64,000 nucleotides of DNA from Pseudomonadota bacterium (GTDB lineage Bacteria; Pseudomonadota; Gammaproteobacteria; Burkholderiales; Burkholderiaceae_D). Positions 3,359-52,829 of this stretch are shown here, piece after piece. How positions within the stretch are numbered: position 1 is the first letter of the stretch; the number at the start of each line of letters is the position of its first letter. The translations under genes and the position numbers were made by a program. The DNA lies in NCBI GenBank assembly GCA_040388555.1, contig JAZKBP010000027.1:20463-84462 (forward strand), written 5' to 3'. Below the pieces are notes generated by a model, which did no database searches, had not been told where the DNA came from, and was given only the letters and a program-made list of their open reading frames with translations.

Positions 3359-3464
3359 GTGGCGCAAGAACGGAGCGCTCGTCATGAGCGCCCGCCGGCT
3401 CGATACGACGTTGCGACGGGCGATTGCGCGCTATAATCGGCGCACCTCGTAGCGCCGGATCAGC

Positions 3465-4214
3465 ATGCCTATCATCGTCTGCCCCAAATGCGCCTACGCG
3501 CGCCAGCCCGAACGGGATAGCCATATCCATGAAGGGGTGTGCCCGTCCTGCGGCATCGCCTATCAAAAATTCCTCGACGCCCAAGGCGGGGCGGCGCCGC
3601 CAGAGGAAGTGCTCGCCATCGAGGAAGTGCTCGTCATCGAGGAAGTGCTTGGCTGGCGCGAGCGCCTGCTGCAAGTGCCGGCGCAGGTGGCGCCGGCCGA
3701 ATTCTGGGGGCGCGCCATCGTGTGGATGGGCGTGCTGTTGTGGAGCTGGCGCATCGCCGGCTCGGGCATCGATCCCGCATCCGTCGGCGGCTTCATCCAT
3801 AACATCAATCTGCCCTTCCATGAATTCGGCCACGTCCTGTTCCGTCCTTTCGGGCGCTTCATGACCATCCTGGGCGGCAGCCTGTTCGAGATCGTGATGC
3901 CGCTTGGCCTGCTTTGGGTGTTCCTGGTGCGGCAAAAAGACAGCTTCGCCGCCGGCTTGATGCTGTGGTGGAGCGGCGAGAACCTGGTCGACGTATCGGT
4001 GTATATCGCCGACGCCGTGCTGCGCGCCTTGCCGATGGTCGGCGGCGGCGGCGAGGACGGACACGACTGGGGCAATCTGCTGACGATGACGCATCAGCTG
4101 CACCACACCCAAGCCATCGCCCGCACCAGCTTCGCGCTGGGCGTGCTGCTGATGCTGGCGGGTCTGGCCTGGGCGGCGCTGGTGCTGCGGCGCCAGCACC
4201 GGCACCTGGCCTGA
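3465..4214 (+). CDS. membrane protein with N-terminal zinc ribbon and HExxH motif (metalloprotease-like, uncharacterised)
   Basis: CPKC...CPSC ribbon at the N-terminus, HEFGH within a hydrophobic region, and several predicted TM helices. Confidence 0.65.
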   Translation: MPIIVCPKCAYARQPERDSHIHEGVCPSCGIAYQKFLDAQGGAAPPEEVLAIEEVLVIEEVLGWRERLLQVPAQVAPAEFWGRAIVWMGVLLWSWRIAGSGIDPASVGGFIHNINLPFHEFGHVLFRPFGRFMTILGGSLFEIVMPLGLLWVFLVRQKDSFAAGLMLWWSGENLVDVSVYIADAVLRALPMVGGGGEDGHDWGNLLTMTHQLHHTQAIARTSFALGVLLMLAGLAWAALVLRRQHRHLA

Positions 4215-4350: not shown

Positions 4351-6762
4351 TCAGAGGTGGGAGAGCGTTTGGTGGATGGACAAGCGCGCCGCGCGCCAAG
4401 CCGGGTAAATTGATGCGGCCATCGCGCCGCCCAGCACCAGGATTGACCACAACAGCACAGCCTTTTGCGATAGTACGAAGGGGAAGGGCAGGCCGAACAG
4501 CAGATTGCCGAGGAAGGCGCCGATGGCCGCCGATAGCGGCAGTGTCAGCGCGATGGCCAGCGGCAGGCTCAAGAACCCGACGAACACGCCCTCGGACAGC
4601 ACATTGCGTAGCACCACGCCGGTGCTCGCGCCGATCGAGCGCATGATGCCAAACTCGCGGCTGCGCTCGGCCACGCTGCTGCCCATGGCCGAGGCCAGGC
4701 CGAAAGCGCCGGCCACGCCCATCACGCCGGAGATGAACAGCAGGGCGGCGATCATCAGGTCGAAGTGGCCGTCCACATCCTTGCGCATCATGGTCTCGGT
4801 GATCGTCATGCGCACCGGCAGGCCCGCGCTGGACATGGCCGTCTCGATCGCGGCGGCCGCCGCGTCCAGCGCACCCGCGTCGTGGGCGCGGGTGATGATG
4901 CGGTAGGCGCTCGATTGGCCGGACTGGCCGGTGAGCGCGCTCAAGGCCGCGTCGTTCACGAACAGAGTCGCCGGCGACATGTACTGGCGCGCGATGCCCA
5001 CCACCCGCAGACGCGCCGTATGGCCGTGGCTGGAGACGTCGATGTCGGCGCCGACCTTCGCGCCCGGGAAAAAGTTGAGCGCCGCCGTGTTGTTCAATAC
5101 GACCGCCAGCGTTTCGTCCGAGCGCAGCCAGCGGCCCTCGAGCAGGGGCAGCGCGAGCATGCGGGTATCGGGCGGCACCGCCAGCACGCCCAGGGTGCCA
5201 TGGTCGCCATCCGGATAGACGCGTTCGATCTCCAGGCCGTCGCTGCGCGCCTTCGCCGCCAGCGTGCGCGGCCAGGCCTCGACCCGCGCCACCGCTGGCA
5301 GCGCCTGCAGGATGTAAGCCACCTGCTCGGGCGAGGCGGGCTTGGCGAGGATGGTTTCGAGGTCGTAGTGGCGCTCTAGCGCCGCTTCCAGCAAGTGCTG
5401 CTGGGCCGCCTTGCGCACGTTCAGGCTGCTGATGGTCATGGCGCCGGCCAGCGACAGCAGCGCCAGCGTGAGCGCCAGGCGGGCGCGCCGGCGCAGGCTG
5501 TTACGCAAGGCCATGAGCAGACTACGGCTGACGAAGGGCAGCGCTTCGAGCCAGCGACCGGAGGCGCTGTAATACTGGCGCGCGCTGCCAAAGTCGCCCA
5601 TGGCCGCTTGCACCGTGGCGCGCGTGGCTTGCCGGATCGGGATGGCGGCCAGCGCCAGCGGCAGCAGGATGCCGGCGCAGGCCAGCGCCAGGTAGACCAG
5701 GTGCGAAATGGCGTCGCTGGCCATGCCGAAGTTCAGGATCTGCATCAGCACCACGGCGGCGAAGGCGCGCCCGGCGGCGATCCCGCCAGCCATGCCGAGC
5801 ACGGTGGCCGCGATGGCGATGGCCGCCACCAGTCCAAGGTAGAGCCGCGCCAGCTGCGCGCCGCTCGCGCCGATCGCCTTCATCACGCCGATCTGGCGCC
5901 GTTGCTGCGCCAGCATCGCGCCCAGCACGGTGGCGCCGAGCACGGCGCTCAGCAGCAGGGCGATGGCGCTGAAGGCCAGCAGCATCAGCAGAATCGAATT
6001 CATGATGCGCGCATGCGGGTGCTCGCCCGGCGGCGGCACGCTGATGCGCTCGGCCCGCGTGCCTTGCTCGCGCAGCCATGTCGCCAGGCGCGCCACGGTG
6101 GCCTCCACCGCCTGCGCGTCGAGCGCGCGCTCGCGCACCGTCACCTTCAAGGTGCGCAGCTTGCCGTTCAAGCCCATCTGCATTACCGTCGCCGGCGAGG
6201 CGTAGGCGTACACGGTCGATCCGCGCGTGGCCGGCGGCAGGGCCGGGTCGTGCACGGTGCCGGCGATGCTCAAAATGTGCAGGCTGCCGTCGGCGCTGCG
6301 CGTGCTCACGCTGTCGCCGATGCTTGCTGCGATCAGCTTAAGCGCGTCGCGCTCGAGCAGCAGCGCGCCGTCCGGCGGCACGCGCGCGCCCGCTTCGGGG
6401 AACACGGTGTTGATGCTCATGGCGCGAAAGTCATCGACCACGAAGATCGTCAGCGCCATGGTCTGGCCGGCGCTGGTGCGCAGCGTGGCGCCGACGGTGG
6501 TGCCGGCCTGGGCTTCGCGGATGCCGGGAAAGCGGCGCACCCGCGCCACCAGCTCCGGCGTGATGGCGTCAAAGCGCAGCATGGCCGAGGGCGGATTGGT
6601 GGCCAGGTAGTTGCGCGGCACTTCGCGCGCCAGGATCGTGTAACTGCTGAGCATGGTGGCGAGCGCGCACACCCCGGCCGCCATCGCCAGCACCATCAAT
6701 GCAATGCGTCCGGGCGTGGCCCCGACGTCGCGCACCATCTTGATCCAGCGCGGGCTAAGCAT
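4351..6762 (-). CDS. ABC transporter permease, FtsX/MacB type with two FtsX modules
   Basis: Lies in ORF 4351..6870. The likely start is [13 protein letters not shown] at 6762, overlapping the upstream ATPase stop by 8 nt. It has two blocks of four TM helices separated by large periplasmic domains. Confidence 0.85.
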
Positions 6763-7495: not shown

Positions 7496-7671
7496 GCTGT
7501 GCTTTCTGGATGTGGGCGACATTGCCATGTCCATCATTAGAGCCGTGCCGCGTTGCTTGGGTGTGTCGGCGGCGGGCAGATTGTTGGCGCGCGCGTTTCG
7601 CGCGGGTGCGGGAAACAAAGCAGAAACAAAAACCGGGTGAAGACGGGCCCGAAATAGGCTATAAAGCCGGT

Positions 7672-8412
7672 ATGGAAAAAACCGAGAAGTTAGATCACAT
7701 CCTGGTCGTCGATGACGACGAGGACATCCGCGACCTGGTGCGCCAGTATCTGGAAAAAAATGGCTTCAAGGTCAGCACCGCTGCCAACGGGCGCCAAATG
7801 CGCGAAGTGCTGGGGGCGCGCGGCGTCGACATGGTGGTGCTCGACCTGATGATGCCGGGCGAGGACGGCTTGGCGCTATGCCGCGGCCTGCGCGCCGTCG
7901 AGGCCGACGCCGTGCCGATCCTGATGCTGACGGCGAAAAACGAGGAGGCCGACCGCATCCTGGGACTGGAAATGGGCGCCGACGATTACCTGACCAAGCC
8001 CTTCGCCACGCGCGAGCTGCTGGCGCGCATCCGCGCCATCTTGCGCCGTGCGCGCATGATTCCGGCGCATTTGCAGGTGAGCGAATCGCACCATGTGCTC
8101 GCCTTTGGTCCCTGGAAGCTCGACACCCACGCGCGCCACCTGCTCGACGCGGGCGGCGCGATGGTGTTCCTGAGCGGGGCCGAGTACCGTTTGCTGCAGG
8201 TGTTCCTGGAGCACCCGAACCGCGTGCTCACGCGCGACCAGCTGCTGGGATTGACGCAGGGACGCGAGGCCGATGTGTTCGACCGTTCGATCGATATCCT
8301 GGTGAGCCGCCTGCGCAAGCGCCTGCGCGATGACGCCAGCGAGGCGCAGTACATCAAGACGGTGCGCAGCGGCGGCTATATATTCTCGGCCAGCGTGCAG
8401 GTGCGCGCGTGA
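7672..8412 (+). CDS. OmpR/PhoB-family response regulator
   Basis: Receiver domain ([14 protein letters not shown]...DLMMPGEDG) plus a winged-helix C-terminus (...[12 protein letters not shown]). The true start MEKTEK lies inside the longer track ORF 7426..8412. Confidence 0.9.
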
Positions 8413-9707
8413 ACCCGATGCGCTGGCGCGGCAGCTTGTTCCTGCGCCTGATGCTGGCCTGGTGCTGCGCGCTGCTGGTGGGGCACTTGATCAACGCCGG
8501 CGTCTCCTACCTGCATGTGCTCGATTACCAGGTCACGCGCACCAGCTATTACCTGGCCAAGGACTTGGCGGTGCTGGTGCCGATGGTGGAGGCGGCGGCG
8601 CCGCCCGAGCGCGCCGCCTGGCTTGGCCGAATGGAGCGCAGCGCCTACAGCTTCACGCTGGACCAGGGCGCGCCGGCGCTGGCACCGCGCACGGCCGACG
8701 CGTCGCGCTACCTGAAGGCGCTTGGCGACGAGCTTGGGCCGAAGCATCCGGTCACGCTGGTGCGCTCCGAGAGTGGCGACTATCTGCGCTTGCAAGTGGC
8801 GCTGGCCGATGGCGCGCGGCTGACGGCGCGCGTGCGCGACTTGCCGCCGCAGGTGTCGATGGCTGGCGGTTTTGTCTTTCTGGCGCAGATGCTGGCCGTG
8901 ATCGGCATCAGCTGGTTCGCCGTGCGCCAGGCCACGCGCCCCTTGCAGCGCCTGGCCGAGCAGGCCGAGGTGCTGGGCGTGTCGATGCAATGCGAGCCGA
9001 TCGCCGAGGACGGGCCGGCCGAGGTGGCACGCGCGGCGGCGGCGTTCAATGCGATGGGGCGGCGCATCAAGGAGCATCTGGCCGAGCGGGTGCGCATCCT
9101 GGCGGCCATCTCGCATGATTTGCAAACGCCGATCACGCGCATGCGCTTGCGCGCCGAGCTGATGGACGACGCGCAGTTGCGGGCCAAGTTCGAGAGCGAC
9201 TTGGGGGCGATGCAGGCGCTGGTGGAGGAGGGGATCGCGTATGCGCGCAGTGTCGACCGTACGGCCGAGGCGGCGTGCGCGGTCGACGTGAGCGCCCTGT
9301 TCGATAGCGTGGTGGGTGATTACGCCGATGGTGGCTACCAGGTGGACCTCGTATGCCCGCCGGAGCTGGTGTTGCACACGCGCCCGCATACGCTGCGCCG
9401 GGTGGTGGTCAACCTGGCCGACAACGCGCTCAAGTTCGCGCAGGAGGTGCAGATCGAGGTGAGCCGGCCGGCGCCGGATCGCGTGGCCGTTTGCGTGCGC
9501 GACCGCGGGCCGGGGATCGATCCGGCCCAGCTGGAAGCGGTGTGCCAGCCGTTTTATCGGATCGATTCGTCGCGCAATCGCAGTACCGGCGGCACTGGGC
9601 TGGGCTTGGCGATCGCGCAGCAGTTGAGCCTGGCGTTGGGCGGTACGCTGATGCTGGCCAATCGGGAGGGCGGCGGACTCGAAGCGCGCGTCGAATTTGC
9701 CTGCTGA
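8409..9707 (+). CDS. sensor histidine kinase (EnvZ-like architecture)
   Basis: Two TM segments, H-box AAISHDLQTPITRM, N/G boxes DNALKFA, DRGPGI and GGTGLGLAI. A GTGA overlap links it to the regulator gene. Confidence 0.9.
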   Translation: MNPMRWRGSLFLRLMLAWCCALLVGHLINAGVSYLHVLDYQVTRTSYYLAKDLAVLVPMVEAAAPPERAAWLGRMERSAYSFTLDQGAPALAPRTADASRYLKALGDELGPKHPVTLVRSESGDYLRLQVALADGARLTARVRDLPPQVSMAGGFVFLAQMLAVIGISWFAVRQATRPLQRLAEQAEVLGVSMQCEPIAEDGPAEVARAAAAFNAMGRRIKEHLAERVRILAAISHDLQTPITRMRLRAELMDDAQLRAKFESDLGAMQALVEEGIAYARSVDRTAEAACAVDVSALFDSVVGDYADGGYQVDLVCPPELVLHTRPHTLRRVVVNLADNALKFAQEVQIEVSRPAPDRVAVCVRDRGPGIDPAQLEAVCQPFYRIDSSRNRSTGGTGLGLAIAQQLSLALGGTLMLANREGGGLEARVEFAC

Positions 9708-9710
9708 AGG

Positions 9711-9790
9711 CCAAAAGGGGACAGACCCCTGTTTTAAGGAAAAAGGGCAATCGCCCTTTTTCCTTAAAACAGGGGTCTGTCCCCTTTTGG
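9711..9790. repeat. REP-like 80-bp near-perfect palindrome between convergent genes (probable bidirectional terminator)
   Basis: Sequence CCAAAAGGGGACAGACCCCTGTTTTAAGGAAAAAGGGC-aatc-GCCCTTTTTCCTTAAAACAGGGGTCTGTCCCCTTTTGG. It holds two inverted copies of the core AGGGGACAGACCCCTGTTTT, which recurs at 23.46-23.56 kb. Confidence 0.85.
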
Positions 9791-9800
9791 TTCTTTTGGT

Positions 9801-10769
9801 TCAGGCGGGCGCGATCCAGCGCGCGAAGGCGGCCAGGTCGACGTTGCCGCCGCTGACGAGCACGCCCACCCGCTTGCCCTCGAGCGGCAGCACCCGCGCC
9901 AGCGCCGCCGCCGCCGCCAGACAACCGGTCGGCTCGACCACCATCTTCATGCGCTCGGCGAAAAAGCGCATGGTGTCGATGAGCTGGGCGTCCGACACCG
10001 TGACGATGTCGGCCACGTAGCTTTGCATCACGGCGAAATTGTGGGCGCCCACATGCGTGACCTTGGCCCCGTCGGCGATCGTGTCGGGCACGGCGATGCG
10101 CACCACTTCGCCCTTGCGCAGCGATTGCTGGCCATCGTTGCCCAATTCCGGCTCCACCCCGATCACCTGGCATTGCGGGCTCAAGCCTGAGGCGGCCAGG
10201 GCGCTGCCGGCCAGCAGGCCGCCGCCACCCAGGCACACCAGCAGCACGTCGAGCTGGCCGACGTCGTTGAACAATTCGCGCGCCGCCGTGCCCTGGCCGC
10301 AGATCACGTCCGGATGGTCGTAGGGCGGAATGAGGGTCATGCCGCGCTCCTGCGCCAGGCGCTGGCCGATCTGCTCGCGGTCTTCCTTGTAGCGGTCGTA
10401 CAGCACGACCTCGCCGCCGTACTCGCGCGTGGCCTGCACTTTTTGCGGCGGCGCGTCGTGCGGCATGATGATGGTCGAGCGCATGCCCATCAGGGACGCC
10501 GAGAGCGCGATCGCCTGCGCGTGGTTGCCCGAGGAGTAGGTGAGCACGCCGGCGCGGCGCTGTCCCTCGTCAAAGCGCGCCAGCGCGTTGTAGGCGCCGC
10601 GGAACTTGAAGGCGCCCATGCGCTGGAAATTCTCGCACTTGAAGAACAGCTGGGCGCCGCTCATCGCATTCGCAGTGCGCGAGGTGAGCACCGGTGTGCG
10701 GTGGGCCGCGCCCTCGATGCGGGCGGCGGCTTGTTCGATGTCGCGGTAATGCAGTGGCGTCTGGCCCAT
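9801..10769 (-). CDS. fold-type II PLP enzyme, threonine/serine dehydratase family (serine racemase / hydroxyaspartate ammonia-lyase-like)
   Basis: FKCENFQRMGAFKFRGA (PLP lysine context), SSGNHAQA, and the glycine loop GGGGL. Confidence 0.85.
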   Translation of the reverse strand: MGQTPLHYRDIEQAAARIEGAAHRTPVLTSRTANAMSGAQLFFKCENFQRMGAFKFRGAYNALARFDEGQRRAGVLTYSSGNHAQAIALSASLMGMRSTIIMPHDAPPQKVQATREYGGEVVLYDRYKEDREQIGQRLAQERGMTLIPPYDHPDVICGQGTAARELFNDVGQLDVLLVCLGGGGLLAGSALAASGLSPQCQVIGVEPELGNDGQQSLRKGEVVRIAVPDTIADGAKVTHVGAHNFAVMQSYVADIVTVSDAQLIDTMRFFAERMKMVVEPTGCLAAAAALARVLPLEGKRVGVLVSGGNVDLAAFARWIAPA

Positions 10770-12183: not shown

Positions 12184-12957
12184 TCAGCGCGGCTGGCCTT
12201 CGGGGATGAACACGTAGCCCAGGCCCCACACGGTCTGGATGTACAGCGGCGAGGAAGGGTCCGGTTCGATCAGCTTGCGCAGGCGCGAAATCTGCACGTC
12301 CAGGCTGCGGTCGAACACCTCGTATTCGCGTCCGCGCGCCAATTCCATCAGTTTTTCGCGCGACAAGGGCTGGCGCGCGTGGCGCGCGAACACCTTGAGG
12401 ACGGAGAATTCGCCCGTTGTCAGCGGCACCGTCTCGCCGTTTTTCTTGAGCGTGCGGGTGGCCAGGTCGAGCACGAACTGGCCGAACTCGAAGCTTTGCG
12501 GGGTTTCGGACGGCGCGCCCGGGATTTCGTCGGGGCCGCGCCGGCGCAGCACGGCGCCGATGCGCGCGACCAGCTCGCGCGGGTTGAAGGGCTTGGGCAG
12601 GTAGTCGTCGGCGCCCATTTCCAGGCCCACGATGCGGTCCACGTCCTCGCCCTTGGCCGTCAACATGATGATCGGGGTCTGGTCGCCGGCCCCGCGCAGG
12701 CGCCGGCAAATCGACAAGCCGTCCTCGCCCGGCAGCATCAGGTCAAGGACCAGCAGGTCGTAGCGCTCGCGCAGCCACAGCTTGTTCATGGCCGGCGCGC
12801 TGTCGGCGGTGACGACGGTGAAGCCTTGTTCGGCCAGATAGCGGCGCAACAGGTCGCGCAGGCGCACGTCGTCGTCGACGACCATGATGCGCGCGCCGTG
12901 GCCGCCGCCTGGGGCGCTTGCGGAATGGTTGGAATTGGTGGACGATGGCATGGTCAT
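12184..12957 (-). CDS. ompR: response regulator OmpR
   Basis: The C-terminus ...LARGREYEVFDRSLDVQISRLRKLIEPDPSSPLYIQTVWGLGYVF closely mirrors the E. coli OmpR sequence as I recall it. Receiver motif VVDDD...DLMLPGEDG is present. Confidence 0.9.
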   Translation of the reverse strand: MTMPSSTNSNHSASAPGGGHGARIMVVDDDVRLRDLLRRYLAEQGFTVVTADSAPAMNKLWLRERYDLLVLDLMLPGEDGLSICRRLRGAGDQTPIIMLTAKGEDVDRIVGLEMGADDYLPKPFNPRELVARIGAVLRRRGPDEIPGAPSETPQSFEFGQFVLDLATRTLKKNGETVPLTTGEFSVLKVFARHARQPLSREKLMELARGREYEVFDRSLDVQISRLRKLIEPDPSSPLYIQTVWGLGYVFIPEGQPR

Positions 12958-13776: not shown

Positions 13777-15654
13777 GTGGCCACTGAAACCGCTGCCAGT
13801 GCCCCCAGCGCGCCGCAAACCTTTGGCGCGACTGCCTGCATCATCCGGCGCGATGATGGGGTGTTTGTCGATCCAATGGCATTGGGCCAAGTGTTCCAGG
13901 CCGCGGTCAACGATGTATTTTTCAGCAATCAATATTTCTCCAAGCTCGATTACGCCGTCTTCGTCAAGATCCTCTACGATTGCGGTCCCAGCCTGCCGCG
14001 CTCGACGACCGGCGAAGCCTTGATCCGGCTGGCCGCCGACGTGCTGCCCTTCAAGCCCGAGCGGCGCGCCCTGTACAAGGCGGTCAAGCTCAATCATGGC
14101 GAAGCCGAGTATTACTTCGAGCAAGTCTACCTGGCCGACCCGGACAATCCGGACGGCAGCGGCACCCCGACGGTGCTCAAGTTCGATGAATTCGTGGCCG
14201 ACATGTGGATGAAGGGGGTGCGCTTCGGGATCGACGCGGTCGGGGTGCGCAACGCCATCTCCTCGGGGCGGACCGAGCGCGTGCTGGTGGCGCGCCGGCT
14301 CGACGCGGCGCCGGGCGTGAACGCCTCCATCATCGAAGTGTCGGACCATCTGCACCGCAGCGACGCGCCGCGCATGCTGGCCAACGGCAAGCTCGACCTG
14401 ATGGCTTACCAGAACCGCTTTCCACAGATCGACAAGGGCGAGCGCCTGCTCAAGAAGGTGCCGCGTTCGGCCGGCACGCTCGGCTTCGAGCTGGCCGGCA
14501 CCCCGATCGAGCCGCCCATTCCCAGCGACATCGAACTGGGGCCCATGGCCGGGGCCGGCACGGTGATCGACATCACGGGCGAAGGCGAATTCCTGGTGTC
14601 GCAAAAGGCGGGTTTTTTGAGCATCGACGCGGGCAGCGGCCAGCTGTCGGTGGAAGACAAGATCATCAGCCGCGAGGGCGTCAGTTCGCGCACCACCGGC
14701 AATTTGCAGCTCACTGGCGACTACGAGGAATATGGCGAGGTGCAGGAGAAGCGGGTGCTCGAGGGCGAGAACATCACCATCCATGCCGACGTGTTTGGCA
14801 ACATCATCTCGCGCGGCGGCACCATTTTGCTCAACCATAACCTGGTGGGCGGCACCGCGCACAACGCCAAGGGCGACATCACGGTCAAGGGCATCGCCTC
14901 GAGCGCGGTGCTGCAGACCAGCGAGGGCACCATCACGCTCGAGCGCGCCGAGAGCTGCACCATCTCGGCCACGCGCGTGAAGATCGACCACGCCACCAAT
15001 TGCGAGATCATCGCCGACGAAGTGACGATCACCGTGGCCGAGGGCTGCGCGGTGGCCGCGCGCAAGGTGTCGATCGAGGCGGCCGGCCCGCGCAAGCAAA
15101 GTGAGATGCTGGTCTATGTGCTGCTGCCCGACAGCAGCAAGATCGACGAGGTGATGGACCAGGTGTCGGCCCGGGTGGACGAGTTCGGCGGCCTGGTCGA
15201 AAAGCGCAAGCTGGAAATGGACACCCTGACCAATATGCCGGACGTGCGCAAGTACATCATGCTCGCCTCCAAGGTGCGCAAGAAGGAATTGGTGCTCACG
15301 CCCGAACAGCTGCCCCAGTTCCAGAAGATGGCGCTGGCGGTGGGGCCGGCGCTCAAGGCCATCACCAAGGTCTCGCTCGACCTGAAGGCGGCCGAGACCG
15401 AGCAGCAGGCGGGCAAGGCCATGCTGGCGCAGTTGGCGCAGCAAAAGAAGGACAGCGGCGGCGGTGGCCAGGTCGAATTGCGCGCGGTGTCGGGCGACAC
15501 CCTGGTGCGCACCATGAAGTTCCACGCCGACGGCAAGAGCGTGTACGACATGCAGTCCAAGGACATCAAGGCTTACCTGCGCGGCAGTTCGGTGGGCGGC
15601 GACATCATCTTTTCCGGCAGCGGCGGCAAGGTCGAGTGGAGCTTCGACGCCTAG
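13777..15654 (+). CDS. FapA-like (DUF342-type) protein
   Basis: 625 aa, GTG start with GGAG 6 nt upstream. The centre is a repetitive beta-helix-like region (GENITIHADVFGNIISRGGTILLNHNLVGGTAHNAKGDITVKG...) and the tail is a coiled coil. I recall this architecture for FapA/DUF342 proteins. Confidence 0.85.
   Translation: MATETAASAPSAPQTFGATACIIRRDDGVFVDPMALGQVFQAAVNDVFFSNQYFSKLDYAVFVKILYDCGPSLPRSTTGEALIRLAADVLPFKPERRALYKAVKLNHGEAEYYFEQVYLADPDNPDGSGTPTVLKFDEFVADMWMKGVRFGIDAVGVRNAISSGRTERVLVARRLDAAPGVNASIIEVSDHLHRSDAPRMLANGKLDLMAYQNRFPQIDKGERLLKKVPRSAGTLGFELAGTPIEPPIPSDIELGPMAGAGTVIDITGEGEFLVSQKAGFLSIDAGSGQLSVEDKIISREGVSSRTTGNLQLTGDYEEYGEVQEKRVLEGENITIHADVFGNIISRGGTILLNHNLVGGTAHNAKGDITVKGIASSAVLQTSEGTITLERAESCTISATRVKIDHATNCEIIADEVTITVAEGCAVAARKVSIEAAGPRKQSEMLVYVLLPDSSKIDEVMDQVSARVDEFGGLVEKRKLEMDTLTNMPDVRKYIMLASKVRKKELVLTPEQLPQFQKMALAVGPALKAITKVSLDLKAAETEQQAGKAMLAQLAQQKKDSGGGGQVELRAVSGDTLVRTMKFHADGKSVYDMQSKDIKAYLRGSSVGGDIIFSGSGGKVEWSFDA
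15277..15652 (+). repeat. direct repeat copy 1 (3' end of the fapA-like gene)
   Basis: Aligned by eye to 16558..16933. Of 376 nt, the only differences are at 15282-15283, 15298 and 15316. Identity ends inside the stop codon (TAG here, TGA in copy 2). Confidence 0.95.
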
Positions 15655-15886
15655 CTTCATGCGACGAAACTTCTCAGATGTAGCGCCTTGATTGATTCGG
15701 AAAGGCCTATGACGAAGTGCGCGGAAGAATCAGGCTAGTTGCACAAAGTGGTCCCTCGGCCCACGCAACCAAGACGAGATTCAAAGGGGCGCGGGCGGCA
15801 CGGCTATCGCGGCCATGAGTCCATCGCCGTGCATTGTAATGCAAACGCAATTTCGCCGACCCAGCAAGTCCCAGGATAACTGTTGT

Positions 15887-16099
15887 CTATTTGAATTTAG
15901 TAAACTCTGTATCAATAGCACGTCCCGCCAGAAACTGCATGAATGTGTCTAAGTTGGCAACAATGCATCCAAAGGCAAGAAAAATAAAGGAACATACAAT
16001 TAGCTCTTCTTTGTCAATTTTCCCAATGGAAAAAAGAAGAGCGGAAACTGCTACGGACATGCAAAAAATTATGATATATAGCGCAAACGCCTTGTTCAT
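15887..16099 (-). CDS. small membrane protein, candidate immunity protein
   Basis: 70 aa with hydrophobic segments (FALYIIIFCMSVAVSALLF, LIVCSFIFLAFGCIVA). It lies 84 nt downstream of the bacteriocin-like gene on the same strand. The Shine-Dalgarno is weak. Confidence 0.5.
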   Translation of the reverse strand: MNKAFALYIIIFCMSVAVSALLFSIGKIDKEELIVCSFIFLAFGCIVANLDTFMQFLAGRAIDTEFTKFK

Positions 16100-16183
16100 A
16101 GCAGTTCTCGAAGGTTTTAATATTTGATATGGGAACGCGAAGTAGCTAAAATTGCGCCCGGCAAACCGGACGCTATCGGACTC

Positions 16184-16393
16184 TTAGTCGGTACCCACCG
16201 CGATTGCGACGCCAGACGCGGCAATTGAAGCACCAAGAGCAACGGCGCCGACGACAGCAGTAGGAATTACCAGGCAGACTGCAACACCAACACCCAACAG
16301 TGTGCACGCAACGGCAAGTGCGCCACCATAGATGGCGTCTTTACTAATGCCGCCACTGACACTGTCGATTTCCATCAAGTCCATTTCTTGCAT
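16184..16393 (-). CDS. class II bacteriocin / class IIa microcin-like precursor with double-glycine leader
   Basis: ATG at 16393 with GGAG 6 nt upstream. The leader is MQEMDLMEIDSVSGG (M-12, E-8, I-7, V-4, G-2, G-1). The 54-aa core is Gly/Ala/Val-rich with two Cys. Confidence 0.7.
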   Translation of the reverse strand: MQEMDLMEIDSVSGGISKDAIYGGALAVACTLLGVGVAVCLVIPTAVVGAVALGASIAASGVAIAVGTD

Positions 16394-16421
16394 TAATAAC
16401 TCCAAACGTTTCTAGTTGTTG

Positions 16422-16438
16422 TACTGTGAATTACAGTA
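16422..16438. promoter_or_regulatory. candidate operator palindrome TACTGT-N5-ACAGTA upstream of the bacteriocin-like gene
   Basis: Perfect 6-bp arms lying 29-45 nt upstream of the ATG in AT-rich DNA. Confidence 0.3.
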
Positions 16439-16557
16439 AGAACAGTATCGCATAGAAAAATAATCAATGCAAATATATCTACTTTAAATAATAATTAGTA
16501 TGATAATTATGGCAGCTATCATGGCGTGCTCGTGCCAACGAATGCGCCACGTATGAA

Positions 16558-16935
16558 CGCAATTAGGAATTGGTGCTCGCGCCCGAACAGCTGCCCGAGT
16601 TCCAGAAGATGGCGCTGGCGGTGGGGCCGGCGCTCAAGGCCATCACCAAGGTCTCGCTCGACCTGAAGGCGGCCGAGACCGAGCAGCAGGCGGGCAAGGC
16701 CATGCTGGCGCAGTTGGCGCAGCAAAAGAAGGACAGCGGCGGCGGTGGCCAGGTCGAATTGCGCGCGGTGTCGGGCGACACCCTGGTGCGCACCATGAAG
16801 TTCCACGCCGACGGCAAGAGCGTGTACGACATGCAGTCCAAGGACATCAAGGCTTACCTGCGCGGCAGTTCGGTGGGCGGCGACATCATCTTTTCCGGCA
16901 GCGGCGGCAAGGTCGAGTGGAGCTTCGACGCCTGA
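16558..16935 (+). pseudogene. orphan 3' fragment of the fapA-like gene (direct repeat copy 2)
   Basis: Encodes the same last ~121 residues as 13777..15654 apart from T->A and Q->E changes. It is preceded by an in-frame TAG (16564-16566) and by unrelated AT-rich DNA. Confidence 0.85.
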
Positions 16936-17003
16936 TCCAGCCGGCTCGGCCGTTCTGGCCGCTTGGACCACGCTAGCGTCGCCGGCGTCGTCCGCCTCTC
17001 ACC

Positions 17004-46542: not shown

Positions 46543-46717
46543 GCTGTCCCTCCTGATCATGCCGGCAACCGGCCGGCTCGGATTCTGCATTCTAGCGCCT
46601 TCTGGACGGATCATGCTTAGATGACACTTGCTCCTGAGTAAGCGTAAAAACGGTTCTTCCTATAATCGTATTGTCGGCAAAGCGTATTGCCTCCAATCCG
46701 TAAATAAGGGAACCAGC

Positions 46718-47347
46718 ATGATCATCGGCTTACTGAACCAGAAGGGCGGGGTGGGGAAGACCACACTCGCCATCGCACTTGCATCGTGCTTCGCCCAGAT
46801 GGGCTATCGTGTCCTCCTGGTGGACATCGACCCCCAACGCAGCGCCCTGGATTGGGCGGCAGCGCGCCAGGGAGATCCGTTGTTCTCCGTCGTTGGGCTG
46901 CCGCGGGCGTCCATCCACAAGGAAATCGCCTCGATCGGCGCCGGCTACGACATTGTGATCCTGGACGGCCCGCCGCGCGTGACCGACCTGGCCCGCAGTG
47001 CCATCCTGGCGTCGGACCTAGTGGTGATCCCGGTGCAGCCATCGCCCTATGACATCTGGGCGGCCGAGGAGATCATCAAGCTGGTGGACGAGGCGCGCAT
47101 CTATAAGGAAAACCTGAAAGCCTGCTTTGCGATTAACCGCAAAATCGCAAATACGGCCATCGGGCGCGACGTGCGCGACGCTTTGGCTGCCTACCCACTG
47201 CACGTCCTGGAGTTGACCGTCACGCAGCGCGTGGTGTTTGCCGAGGCAGCTGCATCCGGCCAGGCGGTATGGGAGGTCGACCCGGACAGTCCGGCCAGCG
47301 CCGAGACGACCGCACTTGCAACGGAAATTTTGGAGTATCTGGCATGA
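46718..47347 (+). CDS. parA: ParA-family partition ATPase (small plasmid type)
   Basis: Deviant Walker A NQKGGVGKTT, VLLVDIDPQ, and ILDGPP, at 209 aa from MIIGLLN. Confidence 0.9.
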   Translation: MIIGLLNQKGGVGKTTLAIALASCFAQMGYRVLLVDIDPQRSALDWAAARQGDPLFSVVGLPRASIHKEIASIGAGYDIVILDGPPRVTDLARSAILASDLVVIPVQPSPYDIWAAEEIIKLVDEARIYKENLKACFAINRKIANTAIGRDVRDALAAYPLHVLELTVTQRVVFAEAAASGQAVWEVDPDSPASAETTALATEILEYLA

Positions 47348-47589
47348 GCAAGAAGGTGACGTTCGGCACGCGCCCGACTGCGCGCGAGACACCGCCAGCG
47401 CCCGCAGGTGACGACTGGGTAACGAACCGCAGCGAAGGCGGTGCTCCAGAACCACTCAAGCGCTTGACGTTCGACGTTCCCGAGAGCTTGCACACCGCAA
47501 TGAAGATCGACTGCGCGCGGCGCAAGGTGAAGATGGGACACGAAGTGCTGGCCCTGCTTGAAGCGAAATGGCGTCCAAAGCAGGACTGA
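47344..47589 (+). CDS. ribbon-helix-helix partition/centromere-binding protein (ParG-like)
   Basis: ATGA overlap with parA. A disordered basic N-terminus is followed by KRLTFDVPESLHTAMKIDCARRKVKMGHEVLALLE, an RHH pattern. Confidence 0.7.
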   Translation: MSKKVTFGTRPTARETPPAPAGDDWVTNRSEGGAPEPLKRLTFDVPESLHTAMKIDCARRKVKMGHEVLALLEAKWRPKQD

Positions 47590-47658
47590 TGCGAATCCCG
47601 GTGTCATAGTCGGCGATTTGTTGAGCTGTAACACTATCGCTCGAAGCGGGTTTGCCCT

Positions 47659-48414
47659 TTACTTTGCCGATACCAATACGAACTCCTTCGGCAGGGCCAT
47701 CGTTTTTTGCCATTCTGTGGTGATCGTCAGACGAGAAAAATCTATTTCCACTGGGCCTTCGCTAATCCCTTCCGGGATTTCTGGTTCAATGCGAACATTA
47801 AATCGTGCAAAATCGACCTTCTTGCCGTCAATAAAATCAAAGGCGGTGAGCTTGAGTATCGGGCCTTCGATTGTGCCCATTATCTGCACCGTCGGATCAG
47901 GGAATCCCCATTTCGGGACGGCTCTTGACGTAATCATTCCTACCGCCGTTCCACCTTCCATTGATAGCTCGATTCTTACTGACGGCTCCGCAGGGCCGCT
48001 CTTGATTGATTGGGCTTGGCTAGTCCATATTCCCGTCAAATTTCGACTGAGCCGCCACTGATGCCATTCAGCGGCAAGCGTTTGATAGGCAGTCGACGGT
48101 ATTTTGGGGATGTCCTTCACGTTTGCCACGCCTGCGGCCGACAGCGCAACGCAAATGGCGACAAGCAGCGCCGCGACACGACGCCCCCACACCACGACAC
48201 TGGACGTTTTAGTAGGGATCGAAGGCGATTGTCGAACGTTCCGACGCAGGTGAGTTCGTTGCGACGGGTGCACAGGTGGCTTACGCATCTTGTTGGCGGA
48301 CTGTAATGGATTGGACCCTGAATCATATCGCAAAGCGCGATCATCTCCGCTCGCGCAGGAGGCGTCGGTCCTCCCTGAAGCGAAATGGCGCCCCAAGTCA
48401 GGTTGATTTGCCAT
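47659..48414 (-). CDS. hypothetical single-pass membrane protein
   Basis: 251-aa ORF with one TM helix (VAALLVAICVALSAAGV) and a ~160-aa extracytoplasmic domain. An alternative start lies at 48288. Confidence 0.5.
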   Translation of the reverse strand: MANQPDLGRHFASGRTDASCASGDDRALRYDSGSNPLQSANKMRKPPVHPSQRTHLRRNVRQSPSIPTKTSSVVVWGRRVAALLVAICVALSAAGVANVKDIPKIPSTAYQTLAAEWHQWRLSRNLTGIWTSQAQSIKSGPAEPSVRIELSMEGGTAVGMITSRAVPKWGFPDPTVQIMGTIEGPILKLTAFDFIDGKKVDFARFNVRIEPEIPEGISEGPVEIDFSRLTITTEWQKTMALPKEFVLVSAK

Positions 48415-48447
48415 ACTGTGTTTTTATCCTGTTGTTTTGGGGGCGCC

Positions 48448-48672
48448 ATGGAAACCTTCGAAGAACGCCTTGTGCCGTTCTACTTGGTTCGCTATTTCAA
48501 CGAAGTCACCAAAAAATGGGCGACGACTAGGTGGCGCATGTCCGCGGAGGCTGCCGCGAGCCGATACGCGGGCCAGCAGTATGAGATTTTGCGTGGAACC
48601 AGGATCTACCAGCGCCTCGGTGGCGACCCGATGCGTAGCCAGGCCGGCCACCTCTACCAGAAGCGTGAATAG
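48448..48672 (+). CDS. hypothetical protein (74 aa)
   Basis: METFEERLVPFYLVRYF... with a GGGGG Shine-Dalgarno-like run 4 nt upstream. It is the only plus-strand ORF in the string. Confidence 0.4.
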   Translation: METFEERLVPFYLVRYFNEVTKKWATTRWRMSAEAAASRYAGQQYEILRGTRIYQRLGGDPMRSQAGHLYQKRE

Positions 48673-49155
48673 CTACCAAAGGCAACTGATGTCGATCGCG
48701 TTGCTGTTCTTGTCCTTGGGGTAGGTGACGGTGCATTCAGTGGTCGCGTCATCGAGTTGCCTTGATAGGATTGCGTCGCGCTGGCCGCCGTCGCCGTAGT
48801 AACACGCCATCCATTTCTCACCATAGCCATCCCGGCTAAGGCCTTCCCACTTCGAAAATCCTCGGCCGCCGTCCTTGCCCGAGCCCTTAGTCCTACCAAC
48901 CGTCGTTGGCTTTGACATCGTCATTGTTTCGGGCGCCCCAAGCATGAGGCCAGCCGAATGCAATGGCAGACCGGGCTGAAACTCGAAAGGCACGAACGGC
49001 GTCCATCCATCGGGTGCCTCGACGATCTTGATCGACTTCCTCGGTATTTCAGCCGGGCATGCAATGCGATGCTCGACTGGCGCGACATTGTGGAACCCCA
49101 ATTGGCGTAATAACGAGGAAATAAGCAATATCGAACTATGGAAGGTGAATCGCAT
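48673..49155 (-). CDS. hypothetical protein with signal-peptide-like N-terminus
   Basis: MRFTFHSSILLISSLLRQ... The ATG lies inside the last codons of the upstream ORF (20-nt overlap). Cysteines are spaced through the sequence. Confidence 0.5.
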   Translation of the reverse strand: MRFTFHSSILLISSLLRQLGFHNVAPVEHRIACPAEIPRKSIKIVEAPDGWTPFVPFEFQPGLPLHSAGLMLGAPETMTMSKPTTVGRTKGSGKDGGRGFSKWEGLSRDGYGEKWMACYYGDGGQRDAILSRQLDDATTECTVTYPKDKNSNAIDISCLW

Positions 49156-49534
49156 ATTCCATCATGTTTGGACTAAAATCAAAATATGGCCATGGAGCTG
49201 GTTCAGTGAAGCCAAACTTGTCGCGTTCACCATTTATACCTAACTCATGTGGTTTCTTGATTTGTTTGCCAAATGTATTGGTTGGAGCGGCGTCAAGTAT
49301 GGCAGCAAATTTTGCGTGAATTTTGTCGATATCCGCTATCTGTCGAATATTGGATTTAATGTCTTGCATTCTCTTTAACCATTCTGGGTGGGCGGTGATC
49401 GTGTTTAATGTGCATGCCCCCTGATTCCAAAGGCGGACTCCAAGCACGACATGGTCAGAATATAAGTAATTAACGCCGATTACTAGCTTTTGGCGTTGTT
49501 CCAAGTAGATATCATAGCTGTCGTATTTAGACAT
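49136..49534 (-). CDS. hypothetical protein (132 aa)
   Basis: The preferred start is ATG 49534 (MSKYDSYDIYLEQ) with GGGAA upstream. The track start at 49615 is a TTG without a Shine-Dalgarno. Confidence 0.5.
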   Translation of the reverse strand: MSKYDSYDIYLEQRQKLVIGVNYLYSDHVVLGVRLWNQGACTLNTITAHPEWLKRMQDIKSNIRQIADIDKIHAKFAAILDAAPTNTFGKQIKKPHELGINGERDKFGFTEPAPWPYFDFSPNMMEYAIHLP

Positions 49535-49598
49535 ACGTTTCCCATGTCCCAAAGTCCGATCGAGTGCGCTATTTGCAAACCCCGGTTTTTCAGAAATT

Positions 49599-49910
49599 CT
49601 ATTCTGATTCTTCAAAAAAAGAAAAGGCGCAAGACTTGATTATTCCTCGACGTGTTTTATAACAAATAATATGTCCATCAGAATTGGCCAAGTTCCCCAT
49701 TTCGTCTTGGTCATAGACTACATCGTAATCTCCTACGAATTCAGCGCCATATTCATCAGCGACTCTCTTTATTTTTACAAAAGTAACGTCCCCAACTCCA
49801 TCAAATAGACCAGAACTTCTTGCCTTGGCGTTCCACGTTAGTCTTTGGCCGCTACGCAATGCCAATGACCTGCGCCAGCTATCTCGCTCTTTGTCGTCAT
49901 AAATTCGCAT
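49599..49910 (-). CDS. hypothetical protein (103 aa)
   Basis: ATG start in low-G+C DNA. I recognise no family. Confidence 0.45.
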   Translation of the reverse strand: MRIYDDKERDSWRRSLALRSGQRLTWNAKARSSGLFDGVGDVTFVKIKRVADEYGAEFVGDYDVVYDQDEMGNLANSDGHIICYKTRRGIIKSCAFSFFEESE

Positions 49911-50117
49911 GAAATTTTCATTCCTGGATATTGGTAATATATTTAGTTCTGTCTCGCTATATTTGGGAAGACGTTGACATCAAAGCTTGGAAAGATCCGG
50001 GAGTGCGCGCAATTTCTTTATGGCTGACATGATGAACTGATTCCATGAAACGAACAACCTTTGCCCTGCAGCGCTCAGGCTAAACAGTCACGATCCATCT
50101 ACCATAATCCTCGCGGA

Positions 50118-50519
50118 TTATTTCCAATAATTCAATATCTTCCTCATCTTCATATCAATTTGGTATGCGCGTTCAGTTTCTAGTTTACGTTCTGGGGTGG
50201 TGCGTTTCATTCTTTCTTCTTCTAGTCTCTTTACTTCAGCCTGATATCCTGGTGTATTTTGAGCGATACGTAATAGTTCATTCGGATCAGTGATGGCTCG
50301 CCGCGGCTCGCGCGCACTCTCAGGTTGCGCGTAATATCTATTTTTTAACCTATCGAGTTCGCTATTAGCATTGCGAATAATATTGGACCAGCGCTCCTTG
50401 GTTTGCTGTTCATATTCGACCGACGTATAGTTGAGCTCGCTGCGTCGAGCAACTTGAAGGCGGCTAATTTCTTGTTCGAGGGCGGCCTCCGCCCTTTCAA
50501 ATTCTTGTCTGTTCATCAT
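50118..50519 (-). CDS. hypothetical coiled-coil protein (133 aa)
   Basis: AAGGA lies 6 nt upstream. The product is a highly charged heptad-like sequence rich in E/R/K/Q. Confidence 0.55.
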   Translation of the reverse strand: MMNRQEFERAEAALEQEISRLQVARRSELNYTSVEYEQQTKERWSNIIRNANSELDRLKNRYYAQPESAREPRRAITDPNELLRIAQNTPGYQAEVKRLEEERMKRTTPERKLETERAYQIDMKMRKILNYWK

Positions 50520-50606
50520 GGTCGTCCTTGTGGAGCGGTAGGGTATGAACCGTATGAACCATGTCCTGTCCCTACCGGAAAATTATATTTATTAATCTAA
50601 CAACTA

Positions 50607-50765
50607 TCAAGAACGCAAATTTCTAAGCTTTTGTTCCTGTCGCCGAAGTTCTTCCTCCATGGAGCGTCGATAATCTGGCTCGTCTTTTGCTCGTTGCGAG
50701 TCAAGGTTATCTTCAAGGCCATTTATAATATCCTGAACTACACGTTCTTCATCTTTTGTCGCCAA
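50607..50765 (-). CDS. hypothetical charged mini-protein (52 aa, TTG start)
   Basis: My own translation gives (M)ATKDEERVVQDIINGLEDNLDSQRAKDEPDYRRSMEEELRRQEQKLRNLRS. GGAG lies 7 nt upstream, and an in-frame TAA just upstream forces the TTG start. Confidence 0.4.
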   Translation of the reverse strand: MATKDEERVVQDIINGLEDNLDSQRAKDEPDYRRSMEEELRRQEQKLRNLRS

Positions 50766-50863
50766 AGTTTATCTCCAATTGAGTGAGTAGTTAAAAATAG
50801 CTAAATTTATCTCTTCCATAGCAACTCTATTTTGCCATGAAATTATCAGCATCTTAGTGAATT

Positions 50864-51067
50864 TTAATTACCGGTCGGCGACTCATATTTTCCGTTACAC
50901 TTGGAACAGTTCCACACATCCCAGTCCATAACCGAGCCGTCAGCGCTGCATTTCCAAAGGCGGCGATCATTTTGGCTATTGTAGGAGCCATGCTTTGGGC
51001 ATGGTTTTCCCCAAGCGTAATTATTGCCACAATCGCTGCACTGCCAAATGTCTATATCCGCTGGCAT
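50864..51067 (-). CDS. Cys/Trp-rich zinc-ribbon-like mini-protein (67 aa)
   Basis: CxxC (10,13), CxxH (23,26), C40 and CxxC (54,57), with three W-x-C units. AAGGAG lies upstream. Confidence 0.55.
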   Translation of the reverse strand: MPADIDIWQCSDCGNNYAWGKPCPKHGSYNSQNDRRLWKCSADGSVMDWDVWNCSKCNGKYESPTGN

Positions 51068-51145
51068 GATGTTAAAACTCCTTGGTTAAAGTGGTTCAAT
51101 TGTTTCGTTGAAAGACAACTTCCAAAAATTGGAATATCCGACGAA

Positions 51146-51631
51146 TCAACGTTTTTTCAATGAAACTGCCATCGGACCTTTTTGTCCTGCTTGGACATTA
51201 AATAAAATCTTATTACCTTCAGAGAGAGAGTTAAAGCCTTCTACTTTATCAACACATCCAGAAAAATGGAAAAAAATCTCGGCAGGATATTTTTTATTTT
51301 CCAAATCAAAAGAAATAAAACCAAAACCTTGATCTTTCTTGATAATCTTGATGCTACCTAAATAGGTCTCATCGTCGCAAACGTCAACAGGTATTGAAAA
51401 TTGGTTGCCTCGCTGCGGCACATCGTGTTCTATGTTGCCGTATCCCCCATCATATAGTCGCTTGTAAAGCGGCTGCGATTCATTACCGAGGCGATTGTAT
51501 AGCGCTTTGAGTCGTTGCATTTCAGATTCATCGCATCTGTCTTGCCATTGACTACGTAGACTATTCCGGCGTTTTTCAATATCCTGTATGCAACTTCTTA
51601 TTGTATATAACTCATCCGCGTCTAAAGGCAT
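51146..51631 (-). CDS. cold-shock-domain fusion protein (helical N-terminal region + C-terminal CSD)
   Basis: QGFGFISF and EIFFHFS match the RNP1/RNP2 motifs of cold-shock domains. The N-terminal ~90 aa are unrelated and helical. Confidence 0.7.
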   Translation of the reverse strand: MPLDADELYTIRSCIQDIEKRRNSLRSQWQDRCDESEMQRLKALYNRLGNESQPLYKRLYDGGYGNIEHDVPQRGNQFSIPVDVCDDETYLGSIKIIKKDQGFGFISFDLENKKYPAEIFFHFSGCVDKVEGFNSLSEGNKILFNVQAGQKGPMAVSLKKR

Positions 51632-51919
51632 ATTTCGATTCTCCCTTTTCTATATTGACCAAATATAAATATTGCGGCTGTAGGTAAACTCTTGGCACAC
51701 TTGGAGTGTAAGGTAGGGTGATGCGTAAGTAAATGACTTTTGGTTTGAATCGATCAGTGGTTGGACAAGGCCAAGAGCTGCGGGGTGTATTCGAATGAGC
51801 TACGGCAAGGAGGCGAAACCGAGAAGACCCCGCAGATTTGCGCACTCGCTCTCGTCTAGGGAAGCGCTGATCAATTGACGATTTCAGCGGTTTTCCAAGT
51901 TTTAGAGGAAACGGCTTCG

Positions 51920-51946
51920 CCGAAAAAACGAAACGCGCTTTTTCGG
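51920..51946 (-). terminator. possible terminator hairpin after the 124-aa ORF
   Basis: CCGAAAAA-N11-TTTTTCGG lies 6 nt downstream of the stop at 51952. The stem is A/U-rich, so this is weak. Confidence 0.3.
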
Positions 51947-51951
51947 GGCCG

Positions 51952-52326
51952 TTACATCCATTTTTTTAGCAAAATTGCAGTATTTCTTGCGCCTTTCGGC
52001 GTGTTGTTCAAAGTCAGTAAACGCGGGCCGTCTAGCGCAATGTCCAGCATTTGGTCCATTTGAAATAGCTGGCCGACTCGAATCCTTGTATGAGTGTTGA
52101 GCTCATTTCCGGTGATGCGATCGAACAATACTGCCGGTTCGAATTTTACGCGGTCAAGTTCCAGAGTGCGAAGAAAGGAAGCAAGTGCGTTTTCGACGAG
52201 CAATGATTGGTACCCGGCCATGAATGGGCCGCTTTCACCCTTTTCAATGAACTGAAATCTTCCATCGTCGAGTTCGTACACCCGCGCAAAAGGCAAGTCA
52301 CAATAGATGTAGAAAGGTAATGGCAT
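51952..52326 (-). CDS. hypothetical protein (124 aa), immunity-protein-like
   Basis: The preferred start is ATG 52326 (MPLPFYIYCDLPF). The track start at 52341 is a TTG. It lies 21 nt downstream of the 144-aa ORF. Confidence 0.5.
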   Translation of the reverse strand: MPLPFYIYCDLPFARVYELDDGRFQFIEKGESGPFMAGYQSLLVENALASFLRTLELDRVKFEPAVLFDRITGNELNTHTRIRVGQLFQMDQMLDIALDGPRLLTLNNTPKGARNTAILLKKWM

Positions 52327-52347
52327 TCGATGGTGGCCCAACTAAAA

Positions 52348-52782: not shown

Positions 52783-52796
52783 GTATTAAGCGGCTT

Positions 52797-52829
52797 AAAA
52801 GTAGGCGCCCCAATAGGCGCCTTTGTTTT
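52797..52829. terminator. bidirectional rho-independent terminator-like hairpin
   Basis: AAAAGT-AGGCGCC-ccaata-GGCGCCT-TTGTTTT is a 7-bp GC stem flanked by an A-run and a T-run. Confidence 0.6.

Follow-up and report, generated by a model that had tools for sequence, protein, structure and literature searches.

Class II microcins are small bacteriocins of Gram-negative bacteria, best represented by microcin V, or colicin V (MccV), with its gene pair cvaC-cvi, the exporter cvaA-cvaB and TolC. Such peptides are made as precursors below about 10 kDa, with a leader of 15-19 residues that is hydrophobic at positions -4, -7 and -12, acidic at -8 and ends in GG, GA or GS at -2/-1. A small inner-membrane protein is encoded next to them. 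Verified microcin immunity proteins are adjacent, small and inner-membrane-spanning (PMC12219008), and class II microcins are reported to be diverse and widespread well beyond Enterobacteriaceae (PMC12219008, PMC9746304). Here we describe a pair of small genes found in a 64-kb window (the whole stretch of DNA that was analysed, 64,000 nucleotides of contig JAZKBP010000027.1). Judged from its sequence, the pair is a probable orphan class II microcin-like bacteriocin with a candidate immunity gene, and we consider it quite likely to be a bacteriocin module of this Gram-negative type that was acquired by horizontal transfer.

The first open reading frame (ORF) of the pair lies on the minus strand at 16393..16184, with ATG at 16393 and the stop codon at 16186-16184, and encodes 69 amino acids; GGAG stands 6 nt 5´ of the ATG (GGAGTTATTAATG). 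The second ORF (16099..15887, same strand, 70 amino acids) starts exactly 84 nt past this stop. Direct reading of the sequence confirms the pair as an earlier note, made from the letters alone, had reported it, including coordinates, GGAG spacing, gap and strand. An upstream TTG at 16405 could also serve as start; the ATG is preferred because the leader is 15 residues long in 39 of the 57 members of the family alignment described below. The product consists of the predicted double-glycine (GG) leader MQEMDLMEIDSVSGG (15 codons, 16349..16393, minus strand), with predicted cleavage after G15, followed by a 54-residue core, ISKDAIYGG...AVGTD (16184..16348 including the stop codon, minus strand; full core ISKDAIYGGALAVACTLLGVGVAVCLVIPTAVVGAVALGASIAASGVAIAVGTD). 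Among 522 ORFs of at least 40 codons in the window, this is the only one with a loose GG-leader pattern in its first 35 residues. The core has a calculated mass of 4.91 kDa, an isoelectric point of 4.5 and a grand average of hydropathy (GRAVY) of 1.67. AlphaFold, run with the family alignment (mean predicted local distance difference test score 74), places a leader helix at residues 6-12 and a hairpin of two helices at residues 18-42 and 45-68. The 70-residue product, our candidate immunity protein (15887..16099, minus strand), has two hydrophobic segments, predicted to be transmembrane (TM), with the loop GKIDKEE between them.

Next, we looked for relatives of the peptide. A word-indexed search with the single sequence against 5.8 billion proteins returned only the peptide itself. 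An exhaustive HMMER scan of 1.84 billion representative proteins gave six homologues of 44-54% identity, and a follow-up profile search extended them to a rare family of 59 protein clusters. Its members were found in Rugamonas sp. FT82W, Microbulbifer spongiae, Arenimonas metalli and Lysobacter rhizosphaerae, and in many metagenomes; a few were automatically named "bacteriocin-like" or "Bacteriocin" by their sources, and neither Pfam nor NCBIfam covers the family. No match was found by tblastn against 72,556 plasmids. A scan of viral contigs with a degenerate DNA pattern produced only two spurious matches, both located in an unrelated open frame of 140 codons, and an Rfam scan of 15500-17000 gave nothing near threshold.

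The family alignment speaks directly to the leader. The earlier note had proposed a double-glycine leader, to be doubted if homologues failed to keep the junction. They do keep it: of the 59 members 57 could be aligned, and all of these carry GG (44) or GA (13). The recognition residues which the note had singled out are conserved as well, with V at -4 in 48 of the 57, I, L or V at -7 in 49, E at -8 in 45 and L, M or I at -12 in 50. These positions, read by the C39 peptidase domain of the corresponding exporters, are the best-conserved leader features across distant taxa. In the core, a nearly invariant (V/I)SxDAxYG directly follows the junction; then come a Gly/Ala-rich segment, a conserved proline turn (P44) and GASIxxSGxAI, with S56 and S60 of the GASIxxSG motif among the conserved residues. 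The two cysteines of the window peptide, one of the features in which the note had likened it to class IIb bacteriocins and class IIa microcins, are not a family trait, since only 8 of the 57 members have any cysteine in the core, and we reject them as a class IIa hallmark. In this the peptide differs from class IIa microcins.

The leader also allows direct comparison with microcin V. MQEMDLMEIDSVSGG has 9 of 15 residues identical to the MccV leader MRTLTLNELDSVSGG (as printed in PMC12219008), and in length, in its residues at -4, -7, -8 and -12 and at its GG end it follows the class II microcin pattern given above. When the family profile is compared with MccV, the leader alone scores and the core gives nothing; this comparison serves as a lead only. 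Further class II features agree: the host is Gram-negative (Oxalobacteraceae), the precursor has 6.5 kDa, the core is hydrophobic, slightly anionic and Gly/Ala-rich, and a small predicted inner-membrane protein of the expected architecture (70 residues, two TM segments) is encoded alongside. Linkage to a C39 ATP-binding cassette (ABC) exporter and a membrane-fusion protein (MFP) exists at family level only. In contrast to MccV, the window core is unrelated in sequence, has 54 residues instead of 88 and is predicted to be almost wholly a membrane-embedded helical hairpin; and the exporter is in the neighbourhood neither here nor at most family loci. Nor does the peptide resemble the siderophore-linked class IIb microcins, as its C-terminus (...AIAVGTD) is not serine-rich and the insert holds no mceC/mceD-like glycosyltransferase or esterase genes. 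As far as sequence comparison goes, the family combines an export signal of the microcin V type with a core that has no characterised relative.

Gram-positive class II bacteriocins (PF10439, TIGR03949) offer a second comparison. They share the GG leader and a small, Gly/Ala-rich, predicted membrane-active core with small-xxx-small motifs, and these two families are the best, though weak, library matches of the window peptide. The differences are a Gram-negative host, an anionic instead of a cationic core and the lack of the complementary second peptide that class IIb requires, the insert containing a single peptide gene.

We then compared the genomic contexts of 12 distinct family loci, located in part with a hand-made degenerate pattern. 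In at least 9 of the 12, an ORF of 58-80 codons with two TM segments and a short charged loop lies 15-100 nt 3´ of the peptide gene, at several loci left uncalled by the original annotation. The small membrane ORF that the earlier note had put forward as a candidate immunity gene therefore recurs, with the same placement and architecture, in genomes that are not related to one another. Its position, size and two TM segments fit the published description of verified immunity proteins (PMC12219008). The 70-residue protein is homologous to the partner in the Lysobacter rhizosphaerae module (HMMER, E 4e-5 among 2806 ORFs), and two partners found later (L036, P0064) show 33-37% identity to it over 43-64% of its length. 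A profile built from eight partners retrieves just 15 clusters, all hypothetical save one with the automatic label "PAP2 phosphatase". At one marine contig (L030) the peptide gene (199-360) has a premature stop, giving a 41-residue product (P0049), and the downstream 63-residue partner ORF is intact. This case, a single anecdote, points to a value of the partner on its own.

The closest profile match of the window peptide (P0024, 55% identity) connects the family with an exporter. It is encoded in a low-GC island (L020, 2700-13000; also seen in L021 and L022) that directly follows a tRNA-Met gene (2716-2792). The island contains an uncalled 64-codon two-TM partner ORF (4491-4685), an MFP remnant (4905-5190) and at least three further GG-leader peptides (5439-5603, 7502-7726 and 12822-12953, with one inside 3446-3721). 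It also encodes an Rce1/CPBP protein, a 423-residue MFP and a 716-residue peptidase-containing ABC transporter (PCAT) with Peptidase_C39, ABC_membrane and ABC_tran domains and the catalytic-Cys motif QTEATECG. Its partner ORF has the same loop motif as that of the window, K-x-x-K-E-D/E, and in both cases GC content is low compared with the host. Unlike these islands, the window has the two-gene unit only, with no adjoining tRNA gene, exporter, CPBP protein or further peptides. In Microbulbifer spongiae (L016, CP098023.1), a frameshifted PCAT ATPase remnant (9389-9971), 53% identical to residues 495-698 of the island PCAT, lies directly 5´ of the family peptide gene, with phage tail and terminase genes further 5´. 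This looks like exporter loss beside a surviving peptide/partner pair. The remaining loci are exporter-less two-gene modules amid unrelated housekeeping genes, lower in GC than their hosts.

The earlier note had called the pair orphan within the window, and tblastn, motif search and Pfam scan all agree. The C39 motif does not occur in the 64 kb, and a Pfam scan of the large ORFs of the window returned unrelated proteins, with no PCAT or MFP among them. Given that no exporter is encoded in the window, either the peptide would depend on a PCAT from another part of the genome, or the pair would be kept mainly for its immunity gene.

These data allow us to propose how the pair may work. The 69-residue product would be a precursor; the C39 domain of a PCAT, acting together with an MFP and an outer-membrane channel, would recognise its 15-residue leader and cleave it off after Gly15. 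The released 54-residue helical hairpin, very hydrophobic and slightly anionic, would insert into and damage the inner membrane of related bacteria, and the 70-residue two-helix inner-membrane protein would shield the producer. The inferred elements of this scheme are removal of the leader, export, killing at the membrane, protection by the partner and expression of the pair in this strain.

Several results weigh against this reading. When a true PCAT and a true MFP were used as tblastn queries against the window, only generic ABC ATPases matched. An intact exporter within 10 kb is missing at about 10 of the 12 family loci, so that the case for PCAT dependence comes from a single intact locus and a single remnant. 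In library scans the peptide stays below all curated family thresholds: PF10439 (Bacteriocin_IIc) gives E 0.0019 and 18.6 bits, below its cut-off of 27.1 bits, and TIGR03949 (lactobin A/cerein 7B, class IIb) gives E 0.31 and 10.9 bits, below 21.5 bits. PF17508 (MccV) does not match the window peptide; among 40 family members, weak matches to PF17508 (best E 0.0018) were seen in 6 and to PF10439 in 5. Similarity to the bacteriocin and microcin families against which the earlier note had suggested a profile search is visible as weak matches and falls short of curated assignment. The core has no detectable similarity to a characterised bacteriocin, PDB sequence or PDB fold: a sequence-profile search of PDB produced chance matches only, Foldseek of the AlphaFold model against PDB none. 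Searches of NCBIfam, PADLOC and PHROGs with the two ORFs yielded no significant match. The partners are highly divergent, and among the first loci only that of Lysobacter was detectable by HMMER from the 70-residue protein. Finally, the assigned expression signals are consensus matches only. They comprise a putative sigma-70-like promoter, CTGCCA-16-TATTAT, in the AT-rich leader region 5´ of the peptide gene (16488..16515, minus strand; a consensus scan of the region finds 3 such sites where 1.2 are expected), and a putative terminator or attenuator-like site in the gap that separates the ORFs, made up of a GC-rich hairpin with AATTTTAG after it (16154..16173, minus strand).

The pair is carried by foreign, horizontally acquired DNA. 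The GC content of the insert (15653..16564, 912 bp) is 38-54%, compared with about 66% for the genome, and the GC content at third codon positions is 0.50 in the peptide ORF and 0.39 in the 70-codon ORF versus 0.89 in the neighbouring gene. To its left is a gene for a 625-residue FapA_N-domain protein (13777-15654, plus strand); to its right follow arfB on the minus strand (NF006718, 164 bits), then genes for an HDOD protein, a CheW-like protein and an ABC-F ATPase. Telluria, Massilia, Duganella and Pseudoduganella provide the closest matches to the FapA-like protein (43-62% identity), which places the window in Oxalobacteraceae, close to Massilia/Telluria; the host is a soil betaproteobacterium. 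In two relatives (L002 and L003) arfB follows the FapA-like gene after only about 45-80 nt and tblastn finds no match to either small ORF; these are therefore empty sites, from which the insert is absent. An exact look-up of the FapA-like protein for strains with an empty or filled site gave no record.

The insert is flanked by a direct repeat of 369 bp with a period of 1281 nt. Copy 1 (15284..15652, plus strand) is the final 369 nt of the intact FapA-like gene; copy 2 (16565..16933, plus strand) is a duplicated 3´ fragment of that gene, after which comes the native spacer to arfB. Both copies end at the first base of a stop codon, TAG in copy 1 and TGA in copy 2. Only 2 of the 369 positions differ; they fall in the first 33 nt, and the copies are identical over the final 336 nt. 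If a weaker extension of 7 nt is added, the count rises to 4 mismatches, none beyond the first 40 nt. Where the copies differ, copy 1 agrees with the relatives and copy 2 carries derived residues. In an independent assembly (Logan SRR26324622), a contig of 1005 bp matches 15623-16627 with 100% identity, and its ends fall where the flanking repeat makes the graph branch; both insert junctions are therefore real. The window contains no other long direct repeats. At five other family loci no similar flanking duplication was found, so the duplication is specific to this insertion and not a trait of the family. A 121-codon ORF with a TTG start (16570-16935, plus strand), just 3´ of the AT-rich insert DNA, corresponds to the duplicated C-terminal fragment of the FapA-like protein.

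Such an arrangement raises the question of whether the module does anything in its present host. It might be an inert passenger, a recently captured fragment of a larger bacteriocin island, neither exported nor expressed and awaiting decay or loss via the 369-bp repeats. The small size of the insert would agree with this, as would its gene content: no recombinase, exporter, regulator or mobility gene is encoded in the 912 bp, and a search of the 233-bp tail (15653-15886) for exporter remnants gave nothing above noise. The near-identity of the repeats makes the event look recent and reversible by homologous recombination, and in relatives exporters evidently decay beside such modules, as the PCAT remnant of Microbulbifer and the MFP remnant of the tRNA-Met island illustrate. 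We nevertheless regard a mere passenger as unlikely: both ORFs are intact, a good Shine-Dalgarno sequence precedes the peptide gene, orphan copies elsewhere are maintained by selection, and an orphan immunity gene can be useful alone.

Selection on orphan modules was assessed in three Oxalobacteraceae genomes that carry the module at a common site between gltD and mlaF (L010, L023/L024/L034 and L029). Pairwise ratios of nonsynonymous to synonymous substitution rates (dN/dS) lie between 0.05 and 0.09 in the peptide gene and between 0.18 and 0.34 in that of the partner, and therefore both genes are under purifying selection in these copies. The synonymous divergence of the modules is high, with dS of 0.6-1.5. 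Between L010 and L023 it reaches 0.95-1.5, as against 0.16-0.20 in the gltD and mlaF flanks. Either the module evolves far faster than its flanks, or divergent alleles have been swapped at a fixed site; the divergent alleles found at gltD-mlaF suggest allele replacement. We tried and rejected the idea that the orphan copies are housekeeping genes, as dS of the module exceeds that of the flanks 5-8 times. Such replacement is the pattern one would expect of toxin/immunity loci with exchanged alleles and frequency-dependent selection.

The same values bear on a further explanation, by which the product is a GG-leader, PCAT-exported peptide without a killing role: either a signal or pheromone, or a factor of self-acting lysis or membrane remodelling, with the partner as modulator or receptor. 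A peptide dN/dS of 0.05-0.09 means stronger conservation than is typical of an arms-race toxin, and the near-invariant (V/I)SxDAxYG after the cut site could be a receptor-binding epitope. GG-leader peptides are known to have several roles. The Nap peptides of gonococcus, encoded in the nap island, are bacteriocin-like, show no antimicrobial activity and promote autolysis (PMC11798529), and PCAT substrates include communication peptides (PMC7018657). Bacteriocin-like peptides are therefore not always toxins aimed at other bacteria. Like the Nap peptides, the window peptide is a bacteriocin-like product of a small, horizontally acquired island in a betaproteobacterium; Naps, unlike it, are cationic, and the likeness is a functional one, no sequence similarity to them having been sought or seen. 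On the other side, a predicted 54-residue hairpin of such hydrophobicity is unlike the short pheromones known for PCATs, and a sensor kinase or regulator is linked at none of the loci seen. The adjoining two-TM partner, its persistence beside a broken peptide gene in L030 and the much faster divergence of the module than of its flanks fit toxin and immunity better. On balance we find a non-killing role improbable.

Somewhat less probable still is the reading that the pair is a PCAT-independent internal module, that is, a small membrane toxin with a membrane antidote (addiction or stress) or simply two membrane proteins, its N-terminus uncleaved and its GG look due to ancestry or coincidence: the rarity of intact exporters within 10 kb, purifying selection on both genes in the three orphan copies and the isolated position of the modules among housekeeping genes, which recalls toxin-antitoxin cassettes, would suit it, but conservation of precisely the residues that the C39 domain reads is hard to explain without a protease, PCAT and MFP linkage in L020 and the PCAT remnant in L016 speak for export, cytoplasmic pre-microcins are reported to be non-toxic (PMC12219008), and PADLOC and PHROGs offer no match.

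If the class II microcin reading is true, an uncharacterised core family, marked by a predicted helical hairpin, (V/I)SxDAxYG and an MccV-type leader, joins this class, and the class reaches soil and aquatic Beta- and Gammaproteobacteria (Oxalobacteraceae, Lysobacter/Arenimonas and Microbulbifer). Because its leader is so close to that of MccV, the CvaAB secretion platform described in the literature should allow a direct test of the peptide. No new category is opened; the kind of system is already well known, and it is the core family that is new to Pfam and NCBIfam. The finding is also less surprising than the earlier note implies, given the reported spread of class II microcins outside Enterobacteriaceae (PMC12219008). 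A limited and partly poorly targeted literature search found no papers linking microcins to Oxalobacteraceae. That peptide/immunity pairs of this family are mostly exporter-less, and in the compared orphans selected and fast-evolving, is relevant to orphan immunity and to the way in which genomes share out their bacteriocin arsenals. The exporter-less habit of the family and the 369-bp duplication scar are modest extras.

As to how the insert arrived, its structure fits three models: a single homologous crossover (Campbell-type) of a circle of about 1.28 kb that included part of the target gene, illegitimate recombination facilitated by homology, or a short tandem duplication in which filler DNA was captured. 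The single crossover would account for the 369-bp duplication and make the insertion reversible. All repeat mismatches cluster at one (5´) edge. More speculatively, the pair may be a self-sufficient mobile "bacteriocin cassette" that spreads without a recombinase by means of a captured piece of a host gene and enters by single crossover of the circle; once resident, it would use any PCAT of the genome or act without one, and the family would form a distributed arsenal apart from its exporter. We give this extension little credence. Independently of the insert, a Pseudoduganella metagenome-assembled genome (L007, 4057-7797) and a Duganella one (L004, 8-2916) each have two full-length paralogues of the FapA-like gene in tandem, with 46-53% identity to the query, and the locus has therefore been duplicated before.

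Elsewhere in the window, 46600-52800 is a second region of atypical composition (57% GC, down to 42-44% at 49-52 kb). It encodes a ParA-like ATPase (46628-47347, plus strand), a cold-shock-domain ORF (51146-51631, minus strand) and several ORFs without Pfam match, and is probably another acquired island. No tRNA genes are present anywhere in the 64 kb. Bifunctional beta-lactamases have been reported from the Telluria group. A 631-residue protein encoded at 57661-59556 (plus strand) combines a serine beta-lactamase/AmpH-like domain at its N-terminus (PF00144, residues 48-376) with a C-terminal part of about 250 residues that is unmatched at the thresholds used. We considered it as a possible bifunctional class C/D enzyme and dropped the idea. 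NCBIfam matches cover only residues 18-250 or so and lie far below their cut-offs, the best of them being AmpH-like.

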